The translations under genes were made by a program, and so were the position numbers. A DNA stretch of 64,000 nucleotides, taken from Chitinivibrionales bacterium (GTDB lineage Bacteria > Fibrobacterota > Chitinivibrionia > Chitinivibrionales > WJKA01). The first letter of the stretch is position 1. Each line of letters opens with the position of its first letter. The notes beneath the pieces are model-generated. The model saw only the letters and a program-made list of their open reading frames with translations, ran no database searches and was not told the DNA's origin. This document shows positions 1 through 9,284 of this stretch, in pieces. The stretch covers positions 32,001-96,000 of the forward strand of contig JBBRUX010000001.1 in NCBI GenBank assembly GCA_038247415.1, in the 5' to 3' direction.

Positions 1-656
1 TCCCGCTGTACACAATGATTGGGCGACCCAGCCATGTTATCGCGCAGGTAATCGAATCCGAATTCATTATTAGTACCATAGGTAATGTCGGCATTATATG
101 CTTGTCGGCGTTCGGTCGATCCTGGTTCTGTGAGATCGAGACACCCTACGGTCAAACCTAAATAAGAAAAAACACGACCCATCCACGAAGAGTCGCGACG
201 AGCAAGGTAATCGTTGACCGTAATAACATGTACGCCTTTGCCAGACAATGCATTGAGGTATGCTGCAAGCAGCGCTACCTGGGTTTTTCCTTCACCCGTT
301 TTCATTTCTGAAATTTTGCCCTGATGCAAAGTAATACCACCCATTATTTGCACATCAAAATGGGCCATGTAGAAAATATTCTTGCCCACAGCATCTGTTA
401 GAACGCGCTTTTCACCCAGCACGCGATGCGTTGCCTCACGTACAACCGCAAATGCTTCTGGCAGAAGATCGTCAAGGGTTGTTCCCTGAGCAATCCGTTG
501 CCGAAACTCAATAGTCTTAGCGGCTAATGCTTCATCGGATAAGGCTGCCACCGATTCACGTTGGCCATTCACGGCAACCACAAGAGGCGCCAGTTTTTTA
601 ACATCCCTATCTGTTTTGCTCCCAAAAACTTTTCCAATAATCTCTATCAGTTGCAT
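1..656 (-). CDS. secA: Preprotein translocase subunit SecA (5' part; runs off the window start)
   Basis: Hand translation from ATG 656: [21 protein letters not shown]...[11 protein letters not shown]...HFDVQIMGG...EMKTGEGKT...[15 protein letters not shown] motif ([11 protein letters not shown])...[16 protein letters not shown]. These are canonical SecA motifs. Absent from the ORF track because it has no stop in the window. Confidence 0.98.
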
Positions 657-657
657 G

Positions 658-1245
658 TCATTTCCTGTCTAAAGTACAATCGCGTATTACAATATTTAAA
701 ATGGGCTCATTCTTCAAAATTCTATTAAGCTCTTTTTTGACAAGAGGCGCTAAAACTGCTGGTTTCATCTCCGAGAGCGCTAGCTTCCCCACTGAACCAA
801 CAATCAGACCTCGTAATTCTTCCCTTTTAAAGAGAATCTCCTTGCGTCGGTTCACATCAGAGAATTGACAATCAACATTCATCACTATCGAGAGATCGGG
901 CCGATCGAAAACAACACTGCGAACGGCAGCGAATGTTATGGTTTGCAAAGGCTTTGCGAAAGACATGGTATCGACAATTGAAACAGGCGCAGCCGCAGGG
1001 CCTTGCTCTGGCTTATGCATTACCCCACCCGGCATACTATCAGTGCTCGAAGCGGCTGCGACACTTTGGTTGGCAGGTTTGGTCTTAGGAGTCCATCGCT
1101 GCAAAACACTTTTTAAACCATGCATCGGCAGTGCGTCTCGATTATTATAAACCACAATCCCCGCAAGACAGAGCACTACTACACTGATTATAATTCGCCT
1201 GACACCCTGCTTTTTTTTACTTTGTTCCCATGATGGCTCGTTCAT
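658..1245 (-). CDS. FliL-like membrane-anchored protein
   Basis: Single N-terminal TM ([15 protein letters not shown]), Pro/Ala-rich linker, and a C-terminal REELRGLI...[10 protein letters not shown]...ILNIVIRD pattern resembling the FliL C-domain. Start moved to ATG 1245 to avoid overlap with the PilZ gene. Confidence 0.65.
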
Positions 1246-1252
1246 GCGAAAT

Positions 1253-1585
1253 TTACTCTCGCCCAATTTCACCCACGATACCACATTTTAATTCAACACC
1301 TTTAGAGTAGGCATCGACAAGCGCATTAATGCTTGCATGCATTTCAGGCGATACCTCAATAAATTCTAAACCCACCCGGTAGCCATCTAATCGGGATGTT
1401 GTATGCCGAACAATTGCTTTGCACACGATAGCATTAAGCTTAACGGTTACAAAAGCCCCAACTTCAAGATTTTTTGTGAACAGACACGCAACGCCATGTG
1501 AGCTTAAATCAAAAAAATTCAACTGATTGTCAACCAGATCGATATTCTCGACCCGCTCTTCGACTCGATCAGATTCTGAATTCAT
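1253..1585 (-). CDS. Stand-alone PilZ domain protein (c-di-GMP receptor)
   Basis: RxxxR (RVEER) and DxSxxG (DLSSHG) motifs, plus YRVGLEF near the C-terminus. Confidence 0.85.
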   Translation of the reverse strand: MNSESDRVEERVENIDLVDNQLNFFDLSSHGVACLFTKNLEVGAFVTVKLNAIVCKAIVRHTTSRLDGYRVGLEFIEVSPEMHASINALVDAYSKGVELKCGIVGEIGRE

Positions 1586-1617
1586 AGTCGACTCCTTGTC
1601 GATACATCAGTATTGAT

Positions 1618-2688
1618 TTACGACTGCCCCTCAAATGCGAAGGGGAAGACTACTTCCACAGGCCCGCCCCCGCTTATGGGGGTAAACATCCATCGTTGCA
1701 CAAACCTTACAACCATGTCCTCAAATTCGGGGTTATTCATGGTTGATTTAGCAATGGAAACACTTGCCACAGCGCCGGTTGGCAAAATAGTAAAGCGAAT
1801 TTTTATCTGACCTTTAAGCTCGGGATCTTGCTTAAGCCTATTTTCGTAGATGCGTATAAGCCGAACCTTTTCACGATCGATCACTTTTTGAATAGAGGCC
1901 ATTGAACGTTCTTCGGAAGAAGCAGATTCGCCCTTGATTTCTGGCGGTGCACTACTGGTAATATTAACACTGCCACCAGCTACGATACTTCCTCCCGATG
2001 CGCGACCAATTGCCGATTGACTGAGCACAACACCACTTGTTTTTGCACCTCGACTTTCCTTAATATCGGATGCGCTTATCCCGCGCGAAGCCGCAGCAAA
2101 GGTACCCTTAGATACCTTAAGATTTTGCAAATCGGCTATGCCATCTCCATTTGCAGCCCCCAGTAAATCGTTTACCCTACCACCACCACCGCCGTTTGCG
2201 GTTGCCGTTATTGCAGCAAATATCCCAGTTGATTGTACTTGCGCTGCAACTTGTTGACGAACCGATTCGCGCGTTGCGCTGCTTGCTACCCGACGGGTTT
2301 CTCGCTCTTTGAATGTTTCTTTTTCTCTGTCAACAGGGGCAGCTTCGGCTGGCTTCTCTTCGGTAGTTTGTGCCTGCTCTTGCGCCTTTGGCGTTATTTC
2401 TGTTGGATTTGGAATTTCTTGAGGCTTTGGCACGGGTTGATTAAGCACGATGCTTGCATAACGCTCTTGAAGCTTAAGAATTTGAGCATCGGTCATTACA
2501 TCGGATTGTTTACGAAAAGAAAGAAGATACACCGATAACCCTACAACAAGAAGCGAAATGCCAAAAAGGAGCACAAAACGAGGCTCAACCTTCCCAAATA
2601 GGCGCGACCGTAACTCACGTGGAAAGCTCGTAGGCTGTCCAGCTGCAGCGTTCTGCATGAGAAAAATGCCAGTAGAATCGCTTGCCAT
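1618..2688 (-). CDS. TonB/TolA-like energy transducer, GltG/AgmX-PglI C-terminal domain type
   Basis: N-terminal TM, Pro/Glu-rich then Gly-rich linker, and a C-terminal domain YENRLKQDPELKGQIKIRFTI..G.V...WMF....GGPVEVVFPFAF typical of the AgmX/PglI TonB-C subfamily. Confidence 0.85.
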   Translation of the reverse strand: MASDSTGIFLMQNAAAGQPTSFPRELRSRLFGKVEPRFVLLFGISLLVVGLSVYLLSFRKQSDVMTDAQILKLQERYASIVLNQPVPKPQEIPNPTEITPKAQEQAQTTEEKPAEAAPVDREKETFKERETRRVASSATRESVRQQVAAQVQSTGIFAAITATANGGGGGRVNDLLGAANGDGIADLQNLKVSKGTFAAASRGISASDIKESRGAKTSGVVLSQSAIGRASGGSIVAGGSVNITSSAPPEIKGESASSEERSMASIQKVIDREKVRLIRIYENRLKQDPELKGQIKIRFTILPTGAVASVSIAKSTMNNPEFEDMVVRFVQRWMFTPISGGGPVEVVFPFAFEGQS

Positions 2689-2693
2689 GGCTC

Positions 2694-3194
2694 CTATTTC
2701 CGATATACTACCAGGTTCATATTAGGAAACCCGGCCTGCCCGCAGGTATACATAACACGGGTCAGGATATTATAAGGAATTTCTTCGTCACCCTGAATCG
2801 AAATTTTTCCAGAAAATTCGGTTTTAAACATTGCAGCCGATTTACGCGATTCAACTTCAAATTTTTTAAGAACGTCATACAGCGGCGCAATCATAAAATC
2901 TTTTTGCAGTGTAAGTTGTTCAAAACCTGCAGCGTCAATAACGGTGGCATTTTCTACCATGATAGAATTTTGTGACACCTTTACAGACAATGCTTCCTGC
3001 GCGATTGTTTCGACGCTGGACTTGGGAAGCATAAGCCCTTGCGCAGGAGTAACCATTTGCCCTTGAGACGAATAGTTTTGCAGCAAAAACACAACCATGA
3101 GGGTGAACATGTCAATCATGGAGGTGATATTGAGTTTTACTGTCCCATCACCCTTGCGACGGCCTCTGCCGCGTTGCGTACGAGAACTCGGCAT
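2694..3194 (-). CDS. ExbD/TolR family protein (AglS-like)
   Basis: Basic N-terminus, TM LNITSMIDMFTLMVVFLL with the conserved Asp, and IQGDEEIPY...VMYTCGQAGF motif. Confidence 0.92.
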   Translation of the reverse strand: MPSSRTQRGRGRRKGDGTVKLNITSMIDMFTLMVVFLLQNYSSQGQMVTPAQGLMLPKSSVETIAQEALSVKVSQNSIMVENATVIDAAGFEQLTLQKDFMIAPLYDVLKKFEVESRKSAAMFKTEFSGKISIQGDEEIPYNILTRVMYTCGQAGFPNMNLVVYRK

Positions 3195-4492
3195 TATTGA
3201 ACGATCCCTCCGGCTATCGACACATTCGGAAAGAGCGTAACAACCCCGCCATCGGTTTTAGCCCCGCGGGCAGCATCCATTACTGCAACAACGGTCTGAT
3301 ATTTGATCTTTTCTTCGGCAACAATTTTTATCGATTCATTGTCGGGAAAAGTCGTAGAACCGCTCAAATCTTTTGAAATATACGCCTTGTAAAGTTCTAT
3401 GAGGGTGGCATCGGGCCCCACCGTGAAATACGCTTTGTCAATTTCATAGAGTGCTTTGCGCTTCACCTCGCACAGAGCCTTGTTGAGCGCTTCTAAATCG
3501 TATTTTCCATCCGATAAAAGCGGGATGTCTGGTTCACCAGGAGCCTGGGATCCTGCCTTACTGGCTTCGGTTTTATAATAATGAAAAAGATTAAAACCTT
3601 TGGCAGTAATAACTACTCCAACTTCAAGCTTTGTTTCCAGTGCAGCTACCGAAGACCCGCCACCACCACCACCCGAAGCTTCGGGCAATTTGAGCTCGAT
3701 GCTTCCAATTTTTACAAATTCTGATGAAGTAAGCAACACGGGGATAAGAATAACCATAAGGTTGAGCATGGGCGTAACGTCTGCATCAGCAGCTTCTTCT
3801 TCGCCACTACTGCGCCTGGTGAGTGTGATCTGTTTTTTCTGATTAAACTCGGGTGGATTGAGAATATTGAGAATCGCAACAGCATACCGATCGATCTCAA
3901 CCAGAACAGCATCTACGCGTGCTCGTAAAAAAGCATACGCAACAACGCATAAAACAGAAATCGTCAAGCCAACAAGGGTAGAATTCATTGCCGCAGAAAT
4001 ACCCGCAGCAAGCAATGCAGATTTTTCTGTTGCTTCTATGTTAGGTTGGCTCACTGCAGAAAAAGACATTATCAGACCAAAAACAGTTCCAAGGAGTCCA
4101 AAGAGTGTCGAGACATTCCCAAACATTACCATTATGCCCAAATGTCGTTCGAGGGCTGCATTCATATGGGTAGACTCTTCGGACATTGCCCCCATGACAA
4201 GTTCGGGAGATTCCTTAGACTTTTTTATACCCGAAGCAAGAATGCGCGGAAGAGCCCGTTTTCCCCCTGCGGCACATACCTGATAGGCTCCATCGATATT
4301 TTTTTCGTAGACAAGTTTCTTGACCTTATCAAAAAGTGCCAGAGCATCGTAGTCGGAGTAGGCTCCAATTGCTAGCCATCGTTCGAGGGTAATTAAGGCC
4401 CCAATAATACCAATAACCGCCAGACACCACATGAATATGAAGGCATCATGACTAGGGAAAAAACATTTGGCAAGTTCGGGAAGAAAATCCAT
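3194..4492 (-). CDS. ExbB/TolQ/MotA domain fused to an ExbD/TolR domain
   Basis: First ~210 aa carry STLFGLLGTVFGLI...GISAAMNSTLVGL (ExbB channel helices). The C-terminal half carries DVTPMLNLMVILIPVLL and IVAEEKIKYQTVVAVMDAAR (ExbD). One continuous frame. Confidence 0.9.
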   Translation of the reverse strand: MDFLPELAKCFFPSHDAFIFMWCLAVIGIIGALITLERWLAIGAYSDYDALALFDKVKKLVYEKNIDGAYQVCAAGGKRALPRILASGIKKSKESPELVMGAMSEESTHMNAALERHLGIMVMFGNVSTLFGLLGTVFGLIMSFSAVSQPNIEATEKSALLAAGISAAMNSTLVGLTISVLCVVAYAFLRARVDAVLVEIDRYAVAILNILNPPEFNQKKQITLTRRSSGEEEAADADVTPMLNLMVILIPVLLTSSEFVKIGSIELKLPEASGGGGGGSSVAALETKLEVGVVITAKGFNLFHYYKTEASKAGSQAPGEPDIPLLSDGKYDLEALNKALCEVKRKALYEIDKAYFTVGPDATLIELYKAYISKDLSGSTTFPDNESIKIVAEEKIKYQTVVAVMDAARGAKTDGGVVTLFPNVSIAGGIVQ

Positions 4493-4535
4493 GTGATATC
4501 AGATCCGTTGCGTCATGACAATGTCATGCCGCGTG

Positions 4536-5303
4536 TCAGATGTTTACTTCTTTAATGAGCTTATTGTCGGTAAAAATCTTGATATTATTATGCGTCACAT
4601 GAATACCAACACCTTCTTTAAGCTGTGTTGCTGCAATATGGTATTTATGTGTTTTATACGATTTTTCGACAAGTGCATTAACCACCCGCAATGAGTGCTC
4701 ATCGAGCTCATCGATAATCTTTTGTGTTTTTGCCTTGATAAGAGCAAAAATCATGATTGCTGTAATAGCAACCGAGAGTCCCGAAAATGTTGAATTCATA
4801 GCAGTAGCAATACCAGCAGCCAAAAGCTCGGACTTTTGCGCAGCATCGATACCAGGTCGTCCCACAGCGGCAAACGACATGATAAGACCATACACGGTAC
4901 CAAGCAGCCCGAGCAAGGTTGCAACGTTTCCTATCACGGCGAGATAGCCAGTTCGTTTTTCGAGCTCGGGAATAATTCGGAGCATTCCTTCATCAATCGC
5001 GTTGCGAATTCTATCGGCACCAGAGTTTGCCTCGTCAAGGCCGGCTTTAACAACACCCGACAGTGCCATTTTTCCTGCCTTGCCGCAAATCTTGAGAGCT
5101 CCGGGTATATCGTCTTTTTCGATTGACGAAAGAATATTCTTCATAAAAAGGTCTGCTTTGTAGCCCGAGCGGGACATAAGATACAAAAGCCGTTCAACAG
5201 CAATCGAAAAGCAAAATACGCCTACAACCAAAATCGACCACATAAAAAGAAAGGCATCAGATTTTGGATTAAATGAAGCAAAAAGTTTTCCAACGAATTC
5301 CAT
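4536..5303 (-). CDS. MotA/TolQ/ExbB proton channel protein (AglR-like)
   Basis: ATLLGLLGTVYGLI and GIATAMNSTFSGL motifs; three TM segments. Confidence 0.93.
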   Translation of the reverse strand: MEFVGKLFASFNPKSDAFLFMWSILVVGVFCFSIAVERLLYLMSRSGYKADLFMKNILSSIEKDDIPGALKICGKAGKMALSGVVKAGLDEANSGADRIRNAIDEGMLRIIPELEKRTGYLAVIGNVATLLGLLGTVYGLIMSFAAVGRPGIDAAQKSELLAAGIATAMNSTFSGLSVAITAIMIFALIKAKTQKIIDELDEHSLRVVNALVEKSYKTHKYHIAATQLKEGVGIHVTHNNIKIFTDNKLIKEVNI

Positions 5304-5526
5304 TCGGTTCCTCCGTATTGTTCCACGCTTATATGATCAGATGATCAAAACCGTTATAGTGGCTCGAGACTCAAGGGCTTATTACTCTAAAACATATAAT
5401 AATATATATCAGGTAAAGAATATACTACTTTGGATAGGTAGAAAGCACATGGAAAATACTTTCTCATTGACGCGTTGAATATCTATTATGAAAAAGTATG
5501 CGCAAGCCGGCTAAACCATGACGGAA

Positions 5527-5859
5527 TTAGGGCTGATAATTTGATATGGCTCGACCAGAAAACTGGAAGGCGCCATCATATGAAGATTTCTGCAACACAG
5601 AAGGATCAACAAAATCCACAATATTTCCGCCTTTTCCAAGACTTTGAATAACCATCGGCGCAAACTCGGGACGCTGATCGGCCTTAATGAGCACAAGCTG
5701 AGGGCGACGGATTTTCCCTTCGATTTTCTGCTCTTCAAAAACAAGCTTTTTAACAGACTTACCTGAGGTTGTGGCACCAAGAGCGCCAAAGCTTGCCCCG
5801 AGCATGCTCAAACAGACAAAAAAATATTTAAGCGCAAATTGGTTTTTGGGAAAATTCAT
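5527..5859 (-). CDS. Small exported protein resembling myxobacterial GltF/CglF
   Basis: Signal-peptide-like N-terminus and FEEQKIEGKIRRP motif like the F-x-D/E-x-x-I-x-G-x(4)-P core of GltF. Located directly upstream of the Agl-like genes. Confidence 0.6.
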   Translation of the reverse strand: MNFPKNQFALKYFFVCLSMLGASFGALGATTSGKSVKKLVFEEQKIEGKIRRPQLVLIKADQRPEFAPMVIQSLGKGGNIVDFVDPSVLQKSSYDGAFQFSGRAISNYQP

Positions 5860-6030
5860 GGATCAATCCAAATGAAAATGATCTAGGATTATATTTTTAA
5901 AGTATACATTATGTGCACCTCAATAAATCTATTCAAAAATGACTTTTTTTTACCTTTTCCTCCTAAAATGTCCTTTTAATCTGATCAGGTACCGATTTAT
6001 CAAACTCTGCCAGATTTTTTGCAAGCGGGG

Positions 6031-6681
6031 CTATTTGCAATTCGTCAATTGCTTTCGCAGTACAAAGATTAGCCCTGCAATCCCTACCACAAATGCTCCC
6101 TCAAAGCGAGTAGCGGTTACAAGCATTGCAAGGGCAAGCAACCCAACAATGTGCCGAGTAGAGGGCTTGCGATCATCGGTTTTAATAAAAATAATCCCAA
6201 AGAATATATTTACAAATGCCTAAAGCAAGTGTTCCATACCCGAAAACACATTAGGTAAATAGGGACTTAGGGCAACTATTGCTGCAAGTAAACTAAATCT
6301 CATAAGCGCTGATAGTTTAATGAAGCTAAAAAGCATATCACACAAGAGTAAGAACGCACATCCGAAAAAACAATTGAGCACGAAAGGAAATAGCACCCCA
6401 TCAATCCCAAATCGATACGGCAGAGAAAGTATAAGCGGCCATAAAATTGACGAGGACGCTGAAGAAAACTCCCCCGGGGCAATGCCCCAGATGCCAGAAA
6501 GCGCCACATTTCGAGCTATTGTCAGATGAATATAAGGATCATCGAGCGCGTAAACAAAAATGCCATTGCAAGAGCTTATAATTTTTACATAGAGGTAAAC
6601 CGTGAACAAAAGGAAAATTGTGCACACCGCACCCCATGGAATCCATGAATAGCCTTGACCATTAATTTTTTCAGATGTCAT
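6031..6681 (-). pseudogene. Disrupted multi-pass membrane glycosyltransferase-like (GT-C type) gene
   Basis: DDPYIHL..ARN and SGME motifs. An in-frame TAG at 6220-6222 is followed by a continued hydrophobic frame AFVNIFFG...VTATRFEGAF (TRxEG motif) to a second stop at 6031. The rest of the gene is missing. Confidence 0.8.
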
Positions 6682-6815
6682 GAATTATCCTAAAAAGAAT
6701 GTGCATCTTTCACGCTTGCACTGTATCACTTTACTCAACGAATAGAGCAATCTGCATTTTTTAAAGAAATTAGGTAACTTTCAGCATGCTTGCACCAACA
6801 ACTTTCAATACCAAT

Positions 6816-6841
6816 AAAAAAAGGCGCGAAGATCTCGCGCC
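6816..6841 (-). terminator. Intrinsic terminator after the 6884-7618 gene
   Basis: GGCGCGA-agatc-TCGCGCC hairpin with an A-run to its left (U-tract on the minus strand). Confidence 0.75.
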
Positions 6842-6883
6842 CGCAGGTCCCATCACACTTCCAAATTCAATGTAATTACTTAC

Positions 6884-7618
6884 TTACGGATGCCCACTCA
6901 CACTAAAATAATTATCTGAATAAGCGGTAAGTTCGTTGATATTATGCGAGCCTCCTGGATAGGGCTCATATACCTTTACCATCATACTGTCGCCAATAAA
7001 CTTAACCGTTGACCCAAGGGGAGTAACAGTATCTTTTGCAGCTATTTTAAATGTCCCCAGCGCAAGCTTTGCAACCGAGTCAATCATGGTATAAGATTTA
7101 TAGCTTGTTGAATTGAGATCCCGGGGGTACTGATTCCAATACTCCTCAGAAAAAGGGACATCAAGATAGAATCTACCATTTTTAGAAAACCCAACAACCC
7201 CAGCCGACGAAACAGAGAGATCTTGGAGCCAAGCAACAGTAATAGTATCCTGCCCATAGCGGAAGCTTTCTTTTCCATTGGGAGAAAGAATTCGCATAAA
7301 CTCATGTGCTTTCAAACGGCGGTACTTTACGGACGCAGATTGAACACCTGAGGCTTTCGAAAGTGGAATCTCGGTAGTGTCATAATAAGGATGAACAATC
7401 ACAAGAACATCAGACGATGATTTTCCATCTCCAACAAAAGAATAGCTACCATCCGATTGACTCGTGGTAATTGTTGATGGTGAATTTTTAAGCCAAAGCA
7501 TTGCACCCGCCACCGGTTTATTCAGTTCATTTTTGACTATTCCAGTTAATGGAGCTTCAGGCGAATTTGGCGTGCAAAATGCAAAGAGACCTATGACCAC
7601 AACTAAAAAGCGCTTCAT
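6884..7618 (-). CDS. Putative lipoprotein with a carboxypeptidase-regulatory-like (CarboxypepD_reg) domain
   Basis: MKRFLVVVIGLFAFC signal ending in Cys; LTGIVKNELNKPVAGA...TSQSDGSYSF pattern. Confidence 0.65.
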   Translation of the reverse strand: MKRFLVVVIGLFAFCTPNSPEAPLTGIVKNELNKPVAGAMLWLKNSPSTITTSQSDGSYSFVGDGKSSSDVLVIVHPYYDTTEIPLSKASGVQSASVKYRRLKAHEFMRILSPNGKESFRYGQDTITVAWLQDLSVSSAGVVGFSKNGRFYLDVPFSEEYWNQYPRDLNSTSYKSYTMIDSVAKLALGTFKIAAKDTVTPLGSTVKFIGDSMMVKVYEPYPGGSHNINELTAYSDNYFSVSGHP

Positions 7619-7641
7619 GTTTTACTCCAAGCTCTAAAGTT

Positions 7642-7675
7642 AAAAAAGGGTTTGAAAGCAAATGCCTTCAAACCC
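7642..7675 (-). terminator. Intrinsic terminator after the 7707-9284 gene
   Basis: GGGTTTGAAAGCA-aa-TGCCTTCAAACCC hairpin with an adjacent A-run. Confidence 0.75.
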
Positions 7676-7706
7676 AAACCGATACTACTTAAAATATACT
7701 TAATCT

Positions 7707-9284
7707 TTATCGAGTAGCAGGAACATTCCATTTAACAATAGATGGAACATCTGCACCAGGAATTGCAATCTTTACAAAATAAACACCCTGGCGAACTGCA
7801 GGCAACGACACAAGCATTGCCTTTGCCCCTAAAGCGCCACTATCCCATATTTTTGCACCCAATGCATTAAATACCACTACCTGATTCATTGGCGTATTGG
7901 TACGTACCACATTTTTGTCAAGTGTCAAATAGCGTCCCGCTGCTGCAATTCCTTTAATAGGGACTCTAATTGAAGTTAAGATTGTTGCAGGCTCAGTATA
8001 CCCATCGGTGCTCACCCACAACCAAGGATAGACCATGTTGGTACTATCGGTGATTGTAGTATCAATAGTTTCCATGAGGCGAAGAAGTTTGCCATTATCA
8101 AGATTTACACCATACACAAGCTGACCATTTTGAACCTGATTCCACGCAGTACCAACTTTAAAGAGCCTATTTGGCTGTGCAGAAGCAACTGCATAGAGAG
8201 GATGATTTGACCATTCTGGGTTCCACCATTCAACCTTTTCGTAAATTTCTCCGTTCCCATTGCAACCGTTTGGAGTGGGATTTGTGGTATTTTCGGTGCA
8301 TACATTCAAATCATTAGGGACTGTAATAGCACGAAGGATGTCATTAGGTTTTGCAAAGGTTTTTACGATAAGCCGCTGATGAGCACCCCAACTGCCAAAG
8401 GCTGTCTGAGCTTTTGCTGAACCCAATCCTCCTGTATACATAAGCATTGCTCCAGGAACAACACTGCTAGGCGACATAGATCCGTTGCAGGTATTTGTAG
8501 AAATGAGTGTATCTTTGCCGGCGGGAGTTTTTGCTGCATAGTTACCCAATGAAATAGCAGTATTATTAGGATTGCTAGCATCCAGGATAAAAACATTATC
8601 CCCCGGATATTGGGCCCCTAAATATTTACCATCTTTGGAATATCCCGCGTTGTAGCCACCATCCACCCACACATCCGTAGTAGCGCCAATAACAGGGGTT
8701 CCACTGCTCACATTAACCATTGTTCGCAAAGTTTTTGGCCCACCTATACCATGAGGATACTTTTGATCTACAATTGTTCCGTTGCAAAAGGAATTTGGAT
8801 AGATTACGCCGAACTGATTGTCAGAAGAGTTTTTATAATCAAATCGTGGTGAAAAGCCTGTTGAAGCTACTTGATACGGGGTCGATCCTGCAGCAAGTTT
8901 GACAAACATCACTTTTGCAACCGCAGGTGAAGGGCACAGTTCATTTTCTTGCGCATCGCCCAAACCATCACGGTATACAACCCAATTCCCATCAGGTGCA
9001 ATAACCGGCAAAGCTACATCGCCGGTATTATTGATAAGCTTTTTAATAGTTGGCGAAGTTTCCGAGAAATCGACATAATAGATTGTATTCACATTATTGG
9101 TTTTTTGCACATACACCAACTTAACCTTATTGGTACCAAAAAATTCTTGCACAGAAGCAGGTGTTGCCGCAATTCGAGGACTTATTCCCGCATACGATGT
9201 TGCAAGTAGTCCCATTGCTAGCCCAGCAGAGCACATAATCTCAAATAAACGTTTTCTTTTATTCTTACCGGTTGCGTTGCTCAT
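7707..9284 (-). CDS. Secreted TolB-like/beta-propeller protein with a T9SS-like C-terminal domain
   Basis: Signal peptide; PVIAPDGNWVVY (PD40/TolB-like), NPEWSNHP and YPWLW motifs reminiscent of Fibrobacter paralogous families; C-terminal VFNALGAKI...QGVYFVKI. Confidence 0.65.
   Translation of the reverse strand: MSNATGKNKRKRLFEIMCSAGLAMGLLATSYAGISPRIAATPASVQEFFGTNKVKLVYVQKTNNVNTIYYVDFSETSPTIKKLINNTGDVALPVIAPDGNWVVYRDGLGDAQENELCPSPAVAKVMFVKLAAGSTPYQVASTGFSPRFDYKNSSDNQFGVIYPNSFCNGTIVDQKYPHGIGGPKTLRTMVNVSSGTPVIGATTDVWVDGGYNAGYSKDGKYLGAQYPGDNVFILDASNPNNTAISLGNYAAKTPAGKDTLISTNTCNGSMSPSSVVPGAMLMYTGGLGSAKAQTAFGSWGAHQRLIVKTFAKPNDILRAITVPNDLNVCTENTTNPTPNGCNGNGEIYEKVEWWNPEWSNHPLYAVASAQPNRLFKVGTAWNQVQNGQLVYGVNLDNGKLLRLMETIDTTITDSTNMVYPWLWVSTDGYTEPATILTSIRVPIKGIAAAGRYLTLDKNVVRTNTPMNQVVVFNALGAKIWDSGALGAKAMLVSLPAVRQGVYFVKIAIPGADVPSIVKWNVPATR

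Follow-up and report, generated by a model that had tools for sequence, protein, structure and literature searches.

Can one polypeptide supply both the ring and the axle of a membrane motor driven by the proton motive force, and can such a motor work if one of its axle helices carries no Asp? These questions are raised by a locus of a Chitinivibrionales bacterium of the phylum Fibrobacterota (GenBank assembly GCA_038247415.1), for which we analyzed a stretch of 64,000 nucleotides, referred to here as the window (contig JBBRUX010000001.1, positions 32,001 to 96,000 of the forward strand). A single open reading frame (ORF) of 432 aa (window 3194-4492, minus strand) holds both a ring (ExbB) domain and an axle (ExbD) domain, and its ExbD-type transmembrane (TM) helix has Asn at the position of the catalytic Asp. 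According to the available text of a 2026 review (PMC12905483), Ton, Tol, and Mot motors are 5:2 complexes in which activity is described as depending absolutely on the TM Asp.

The fused gene, its Asn helix, and its unfused relatives

An earlier reading, made from the letters of the DNA without database searches (hereafter the sequence-only reading), had described a complete ExbB domain joined in frame to an ExbD domain, and this description was confirmed. Pfam recognizes MotA_ExbB (PF01618) at residues 81 to 200 (E 9.5e-23; 80.8 bits, cut-off 22.9) and ExbD (PF02472) at residues 232 to 412 (E 5.1e-12; 46.4 bits, cut-off 25.4), and the translation includes both the quoted linker NPPEFNQKKQITLTRRSSGEEEAAD and the quoted TM string DVTPMLNLMV. 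The AlphaFold2 (AF2) model, built on a 31-sequence alignment with a mean predicted local distance difference test (pLDDT) of 80, consists of a confident TolQ-like helical half that ends in a long helix made of TM3 and its extension (154 to 211), a disordered tether (212 to 238), a TM helix (239 to 256), and a confident alpha/beta domain, whose periplasmic strands and helices span residues 291 to 426. A Gly-rich spacer (residues 258 to 284) leads from the TM helix to this domain. Compared with PDB structures by Foldseek, the ExbB half has the TolQ/ExbB fold (E 1e-6; TM-score on the target, 0.71 to 0.75 for chains of 9ddm, 9ddn, and 8odt). The fusion is topologically sensible, since the ExbB C terminus and the ExbD N terminus are both cytoplasmic.

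Next, we consider the Asn residue. In a BLASTP pairwise alignment, Asn244 of the fusion pairs with Asp28 of the free ExbD encoded by the adjacent gene, and in a profile search it pairs with the D of VTPFIDVML in the solved ExbD chains 6tyi_Y and 7ajq_F; the E values of that search are weak for this short stretch, but the alignment is ungapped and consistent with the Pfam registers. Position counts were made on 130 fused homologues, each of at least 395 aa, and the residue at the Asp position was N in 123 of them, S in 4, G in 3, and D in none. The fusion lacks the protonatable TM Asp expected of ExbD/TolR, having Asn244 instead. The remainder of the helix is strongly conserved: in 31 sequences of 34 to 66% identity, P241, L245, L249, P251, L253, and L254 are invariant, M246, V247, and I250 are also invariant or nearly so, and the canonical TP..x motif of ExbD is retained. 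The adjacent free ExbD keeps its Asp, again as the sequence-only reading had stated; it contains NITSMIDMF, and D28 is invariant in 12/12 loci. A phmmer search of this free ExbD against the PDB gave no match. Below, the two types of axle subunit are called ExbD(Asn) and ExbD(Asp).

The fused gene is genuine and conserved in Fibrobacterota. Contigs from two sequencing runs, the possible source of the assembly, span the fusion region with 0 differences, and a contig from a third sample (3745-3912) covers the junction, also with 0 differences and no indels, which answers the question of an indel or lost stop at the linker; the coverage of one further contig set (X4) lies outside the junction. Homologues with the same two-domain architecture were likewise found. 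Among 41 genomes of the same order, the present one included, 22 have a full-length, stop-free orthologue (46 to 67% identity), and 2 further orthologues are interrupted by contig ends. Across the phylum, a match at an E value of ≤1e-60 is present in 56/296 genomes at 33 to 67% identity, with 0 internal stops. Four families have the fusion in every genome (f1, 6/6; f3, 8/8; f2, 4/4; f20, 4/4), three have it in none (f13, 0/151; f17, 0/32; f18, 0/12), and one is patchy (f5, 22/46). In a collection of 5.8 billion proteins, 120/120 of the matches listed carry PF01618 together with PF02472, and the named sources among them are Chitinivibrionales, Chitinispirillaceae, and Fibrobacterota metagenome-assembled genomes (MAGs). 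An exhaustive search of representatives yielded only about 11 cluster representatives that are both fused and full-length, with identities reaching as low as 34%; the distant ones, where named, come from Fibrobacterota, "Ca. Raymondbacteria", and one MAG labelled Proteobacteria. Some of these proteins have been labelled "ExbB/TolQ/ExbD" by annotation pipelines, so the fused architecture is already recorded in databases.

The tether that joins the two halves has a nearly constant length, with 27 to 28 residues from the end of the ExbB helix to P241 in 124/130 fused homologues, in which K219, R226, E232, E233, A235, D236, and D238 are semi-conserved. The alignment of TolQ to the fusion stops at about TolQ residue 222 of 230, and free ExbD(Asn) proteins align from Met1 onward at about fusion residue 219. 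Because these alignment ends meet, the tether is a native ExbB C terminus abutting a native ExbD N-terminal tail, with no added linker. No in-frame ATG, GTG, or TTG occurs within the tether, and the first start codon is that of M242, already in the TM helix; therefore, a separately translated ExbD module is not encoded.

The nearest free-standing relatives of the fused ExbD half are proteins of about 180 aa (about 178 aa for ExbD(Asn)) with 42 to 47% identity, most of which carry N or G where the Asp would stand, with D in one. Aligned with the free ExbD(Asn) proteins, the fused half has a helical insert of about 30 aa. Such free proteins were found in 48 loci from KSB1, Calditrichota, MAGs labelled Cytophagia, Myxococcota, Bdellovibrionales, and others. 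The search for these loci started from a three-sequence alignment, and one of its two patterns contained Asn; consequently, the count of 46/46 Asn in unfused loci was not used as a measure of conservation. The Asp of the downstream ExbD partner was not selected for by the search. In the loci read, the order is a tetratricopeptide repeat (TPR) protein, a small secreted protein, one ExbB of 216 to 219 aa, ExbD(Asn), ExbD(Asp), and a GltG-like TonB; in one of them (L035), the upstream TPR protein has about 900 aa. The distance from the ExbB stop to the ExbD(Asn) start is mostly -4 to +5 nucleotides.

The genome itself encodes at least six ExbB/ExbD sets. Two of them, on contigs C35 (L076) and C6 (L079), are further unfused ExbD(Asn)-ExbD(Asp) pairs, and contig C45 (L072) bears a canonical cluster of TolQ, TolR(Asp), a TolA-like protein, and TolB. 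The fusion operon is thus not the canonical Tol system, since that cluster lies elsewhere in the genome. Two other sets were also observed: on C54 (L074), an ExbB-ExbD(Asn) set whose locus shows no Asp partner, and on C15 (L075), an Asp/Asp ExbD pair.

Since the unfused relatives carry ExbD(Asn) and ExbD(Asp) beside a single ExbB, the axle with one Asp is older and more widespread than the fusion. The sequence-only reading had tied the single-Asp axle to the fusion, and this part of it does not stand, as unfused pairs of this type occur in KSB1, Calditrichota, and Myxococcota and twice more in the same genome. Relative to these unfused N/D operons, the covalent tether is the sole novelty. We also computed a tree from 56 ExbB domains by maximum likelihood, with midpoint rooting by generic ExbBs, which included ExbB1, the free ring subunit of the fusion cluster; it was drawn without the ExbB1 of L009 (cut by a contig end), L056, L057, and the unfused loci that were not sampled. 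The fused halves group together (100/100), as do the ExbB1 sequences (100/100); these two clades are sisters (99/94), and their joint sister group is the ExbB from unfused N/D operons. The simplest history compatible with these branching patterns is a single duplication of ExbB, after which the downstream copy was fused once to ExbD(Asn). The ancestral operon comprised one ExbB, an Asp-less ExbD, an Asp-bearing ExbD, and a TonB-like transducer, and an ExbD(Asn)/ExbD(Asp) axle was probably in use already. In a Fibrobacterota lineage, ExbB was then duplicated, and the downstream copy lost its stop and joined ExbD(Asn), native end to native end.

The gene cluster and its two ring paralogues

The cluster encodes, in order, a small secreted protein, ExbB1, the fusion (ExbB2 joined to ExbD(Asn)), ExbD(Asp), and a GltG-like TonB (Table 1). 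This order is kept in 11/11 close and 8/8 distant loci, where the identity of the fusion drops to 35%, and ExbB1, ExbD(Asp), and the TonB-like gene are each present in 19/19 related loci. The small secreted gene lies 5' of ExbB1 in 7/8 distant loci and in 3/11 close loci, the latter with short flanks. The stop codon of the fusion overlaps the start codon of ExbD(Asp) (TAATG), suggesting coupled 1:1 synthesis of the two proteins. ExbB1 has a strong Shine-Dalgarno sequence (GGAGGAA before ATG), and the fusion's own site is weak.

Table 1. Positions of the motor cluster and of the parts of the fused protein in the window
Feature	Position	Strand	Basis
Predicted small secreted protein of 110 aa; the cluster's first gene	5527..5859	-	ORF; no Pfam/NCBIfam match
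ExbB1, free MotA/TolQ/ExbB ring subunit, 255 aa	4536..5303	-	PF01618, E 2.4e-24
ExbB1 C-terminal tail, ~40 aa (KTHKYHI..GVG.HVTHNNIKIFTDNKLIKE)	4536..4670	-	Most conserved part of ExbB1
ExbB/TolQ-like half of fusion (aa 1-215)	3848..4492	-	PF01618; three TM helices and cytoplasmic helical extension
Cytoplasmic tether of fusion (aa 213-240)	3773..3856	-	pLDDT <50, no secondary structure
ExbD-type TM helix of fusion (aa 239-256), with Asn244	3725..3778; Asn244 codon 3761-3763	-	AF2 helix, alignments
Periplasmic ExbD/TolR-like alpha/beta domain of fusion (aa 290-427)	3212..3625	-	PF02472 match 232-412
Free ExbD(Asp), 166 aa	2694..3194; Asp28 codon 3111-3113	-	PF02472, E 9.7e-15
TonB-like transducer, 356 aa, GltG/AgmX-type C-terminal domain	1618..2688	-	Pfam TonB_C
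PilZ-domain protein, 110 aa, 3' of TonB-like gene	1253..1585	-	Pfam PilZ, E 1.4e-07, 32.2 bits (cut-off 22.5)

ExbB1, which shares 35% identity with the ExbB half of the fusion, is proposed as the majority ring subunit. Two threonines of the fused half, T136 in TM2 and T172 in TM3, are invariant in 130/130 fused homologues and align with the Thr residues of GTVWGI and ATAIGL in TolQ/ExbB; ExbB1 keeps both. Asn170 is present in 129/130 fused homologues. As a side observation, an AMN(S/T)T motif occurs in TM3 of both ExbB paralogues (window 3983-3991 and 4787-4795).

The C-terminal tail of ExbB1 is more conserved than its channel domain, being nearly invariant in 16 sequences that are otherwise 49 to 83% identical. 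The conserved residues are K220, H222, I223, G231, G233, H235, T237, N240, K242, T245 to K248, K251, and E252, and the tail is predicted to form a three-strand beta meander (pLDDT 53 to 69). It is confined to ExbB1-type proteins of 255 aa (149/150 candidates), the named ones belonging to Chitinivibrionales/Fibrobacterota, and is absent from the 216- to 219-aa ExbB proteins of the unfused operons read; no Pfam family was found for it. The tail appears to have emerged alongside the fusion, in the same lineage. A single comparison of its segment IAATQLKEGVGIHVTHNNIKIF (4539-4610) with the first strands of the fused ExbD, VAALETKLEVGVVITAKGFNLF (3584-3649), gave an E value of 0.77, which is not significant.

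The TonB-like protein matches TonB_C (PF03544, 34.8 bits, cut-off 24.6) and the AgmX/PglI C-terminal domain (NCBIfam NF033768, 81.2 bits, cut-off 40), and its score of 99.9 bits against the GltG equivalog is far under the cut-off of 650. The PilZ gene lies at the same place in 5/8 distant loci, which hints at a control of the motor by cyclic di-GMP. Flagellar stators have PilZ brakes, to which such a control may be analogous. We also observed that secA (window 3-656, minus strand) lies just 3' of the motor cluster here and in 7/8 distant loci (L061 to L067), an unusually stable neighborhood over 35 to 67% protein identity. A predicted lipoprotein-like ORF of 525 aa (7707-9284, minus strand) has a faint match to the Fibrobacter lipoprotein family TIGR02171 (E 1.7e-4), far below the cut-off.

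Proposed assembly and competing readings

How might these subunits be put together? The best reading, which we consider about as likely as not, is that the gene encodes a functional, ancient fusion that works in a Tol/Ton/Agl-like motor composed of four ExbB1, one fusion, and one ExbD(Asp) (4:1:1). The stoichiometry is suggested by the coupling of the fusion's translation to that of ExbD(Asp) together with the stronger ribosome-binding site of ExbB1, and by the pore threonines, which are invariant in the fused half and kept by both ExbB paralogues. The conservation of the fused TM helix nearly all round and the weakly supported modelling of the ExbD(Asn)-ExbD(Asp) pair also point to it.

In this modelling, the heterodimer of the ExbD(Asn) half with the free ExbD gave an interaction prediction score from aligned errors (ipSAE) of 0.49, against 0.00 for the best control, and was graded as weak support. 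The mark was reached by 116/157 solved complexes and by 2/215 mismatches; scores of ≤0.60 comprise only 18/157 solved complexes plus both of the mismatches that passed. Passes in this low range are false more often than true unless the pairing was already probable. The runs share at least 84% of contacts, and the partner has a pLDDT of at least 68. Since ExbD/TolR dimers have already been solved, the pass may reflect mere likeness to them.

In the proposed assembly, the ring would consist of four ExbB1 and one fused subunit, and the axle, inserted in the pore, would pair the fused ExbD(Asn) helix with one free ExbD(Asp) helix. The fusion would thereby fix the stoichiometry at one Asn axle per ring, as well as the register of the nonprotonatable helix relative to one ring subunit, and the motor would have a single protonatable Asp. 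Protonation and deprotonation of Asp28 against the Thr ring (T136 and T172) could turn the ring relative to the axle, and this relative turn would pull the TonB-like protein. With one Asp and a neutral Asn that would mimic a protonated one, a single step might be driven per proton, and an elastic return could give a reciprocating stroke on the TonB-like arm. The tether may restrict the motion to a turn-and-reset stroke; alternatively, it could swivel and permit rotation.

The sequence-only reading had judged a tethered axle "hard to reconcile with continuous rotation". This is too strong, because one disordered chain that leaves the axle end close to the rotation axis should be able to release twist by turning about its backbone bonds; a swivelling tether would probably only need to pass the free tail of ExbD(Asp). 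For ExbBD and TolQR, rotation is itself a model adopted by analogy with MotAB, which no in vitro assay validates, and "wrap and pull" and "turn and reset" are competing models, according to the available text of the review cited above (PMC12905483).

Several observations weigh against the 4:1:1 motor. The fused TM helix has a pLDDT of only 45 to 59 in the AF2 monomer, and its placement relative to the ExbB half is not set, which makes this model uninformative on pore insertion. The complex prediction covered the axle pair of the 1618-residue 4:1:1 assembly and gave the weak result described above, and the stoichiometry is deduced from gene order and ribosome-binding sites alone. Besides, the TM3 Glu of TolQ/ExbB (GIAEAL) is replaced by Ala in the fusion (GISAAM) and by Thr in ExbB1 (GIATAM), and this column is A in 71 and T in 59 of the 130 fused homologues. 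Since the Glu is missing in both paralogues, the ion path of this ExbB subfamily may differ from the Escherichia coli models. No gene for a TonB-dependent receptor adjoins the operon among the window ORFs examined, and the flanking ORFs scanned (window 658-9284) gave no TPR/Glt family match.

A narrower version of the proposed assembly, which we find doubtful, places the Asn helix in the pore of its own ring and makes the complex a single-Asp reciprocating motor of limited angle and not a free rotor. Such a motor would turn, pull on the TonB-like arm, and reset, and the four ExbB1 subunits would surround the tether with a cytoplasmic collar made of their beta-meander tails.

The strongest alternative, though in our view an unlikely one, is that one or more ring subunits carry the fused ExbD(Asn) helix at the periphery as a fourth TM helix, around an axle formed by an ExbD(Asp) homodimer with two Asp. 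Rotation would then be unaffected, with the fused periplasmic domain acting as an anchor or regulator beside the ring, and the helix would be comparable to the outer helices found in four-TM MotA or to the TonB/TolA helix docked outside the ring. This arrangement fits the topology equally well; the loss of Asp is expected outside the ion path, and the lineage-specific insert in the fused periplasmic domain and the unplaced helix of the AF2 monomer also agree with it. Nevertheless, conservation on nearly all faces of the helix suits an enclosed better than a lipid-facing position, the canonical TP..x motif is kept, and free ExbD(Asn) homologues stand in a fixed pair with ExbD(Asp) beside a single ExbB; the weak modelling support for the heterodimer with ExbD(Asp) counts in the same direction.

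It is also conceivable, but improbable, that the fusion is a precursor whose tether is cut once the protein is in the membrane, yielding separate ExbB2 and ExbD(Asn) and a mature, untethered 5:2 motor, an idea that the sequence-only reading had also raised. The disordered, accessible tether would allow this, and its sequence does not exclude proteolysis. The near-constant length of 27 to 28 residues in 124/130 homologues speaks against it, as do the semi-conserved charged residues (although these also belong to the native ExbD tail) and the lack of a protease gene conserved in the cluster. Fusion would serve only equimolar synthesis and coassembly in such a precursor, and equimolar synthesis is already secured elsewhere in the operon by overlapping stop and start codons, so that it does not require a fusion.

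We give a similarly small chance to a division of labor in which ExbB1 makes up a standard 5:2 motor with ExbD(Asp), and the fusion either belongs to a separate, nonconducting complex or regulates this motor as an inhibitor or plug, perhaps together with the PilZ protein. Lacking the Asp, the fusion cannot conduct alone, a PilZ gene is nearby, and the fusion evolves faster than ExbB1 (46 to 67% against 49 to 83% identity). On such a division, the invariance of T136 and T172 in 130 fused proteins would be unexpected, since they would never face an Asp. Moreover, both types of ExbD share a single ExbB gene in the unfused, ancestral operons, and translational coupling joins the fusion, not ExbB1, to ExbD(Asp).

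Finally, an assembly or sequencing artefact, in which a lost stop or an indel wrongly joins two genes, is refuted and has practically no probability left, given stop-free fused ORFs in 56 genomes (33 to 67% identity) and 130 database proteins and an independent-sample contig identical at the junction.

Comparison with known motors

A literature search that excluded most subscription journals found no paper on a natural ExbB-ExbD, MotA-MotB, or TolQ-TolR fusion and nothing relevant on engineered ring-axle fusions or on tandem fusions of PomA/PomB. The available parts of two motor reviews contain no discussion of "fused" ring-axle proteins, and the fusion genes in tol-pal loci mentioned in the available text of PMC12204202 include none concerning ExbB-ExbD.

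The fused protein ties a ring subunit to an axle subunit and swaps one of the two Asp for Asn, an arrangement that would otherwise need engineering. Were it assembled as proposed, its structure and activity would constrain how much rotation is needed and whether one proton site suffices, which would make it of real interest for the field of 5:2 motors if that assembly were confirmed. If the reciprocating motor exists, continuous rotation is dispensable for force generation in the Tol/Ton/Agl branch, and so is a second proton site. With a peripheral helix or a cleaved tether, the protein would be less informative, yet still a new arrangement of subunits. The series of unfused N/D operons, ExbB duplication, and fusion with a new ExbB1 tail is also a ready comparison set.

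With TolQ-TolR(-TolA) and ExbB-ExbD(-TonB) of E. coli (8odt, 9ddm, 9ddn, 6tyi, and 9ddo), the cluster shares both Pfam domains, the TolQ fold, the TM2 and TM3 threonines, the ExbD TM helix with its periplasmic alpha/beta domain, and a TonB_C partner in the operon. Unlike in E. coli, ring and axle are here one polypeptide, there are two ring paralogues, one axle has Asn, and the TM3 Glu is replaced; the Ton equivalogs are missed (TIGR02797, 40.6 against 206.2; TIGR02804, 20.5 against 123.45; TonB NF008083, 30.2 against 448).

The AglR-AglQ-AglS/GltG system of Myxococcus xanthus (Luciano et al. 2011, PMC3169522; PMC11761067) also has two different TolR-like modules and a GltG-type TonB-like protein, and it resembles the unfused relatives further in its one TolQ-like and two TolR-like proteins; these relatives also have a TPR protein upstream. 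In the available text of these and a further source, a core Agl/Glt complex is reported in a member of the Fibrobacteres, an AlphaFold model places AglQ and AglS, two different TolR-like proteins, in one AglR5 pore (PMC11761067), and AglQ D28N is inactive (PMC3858216); nothing was found there on a missing Asp in AglS. Unlike Agl/Glt, the present cluster has the fusion, two TolQ-like genes, of which the one for the additional ring paralogue encodes a conserved tail, and a TonB-like protein under the GltG equivalog cut-off; gltD, gltE, and gltC-like TPR genes were not found in the flanking ORFs scanned (658-9284). Further counterparts are the unfused operons of KSB1, Calditrichota, and others and those on contigs C35 and C6, which have the same gene order and types of partner as the fusion cluster, with a single ExbB that has no C-terminal tail and a separate ExbD(Asn) of about 178 aa in place of the fused pair.

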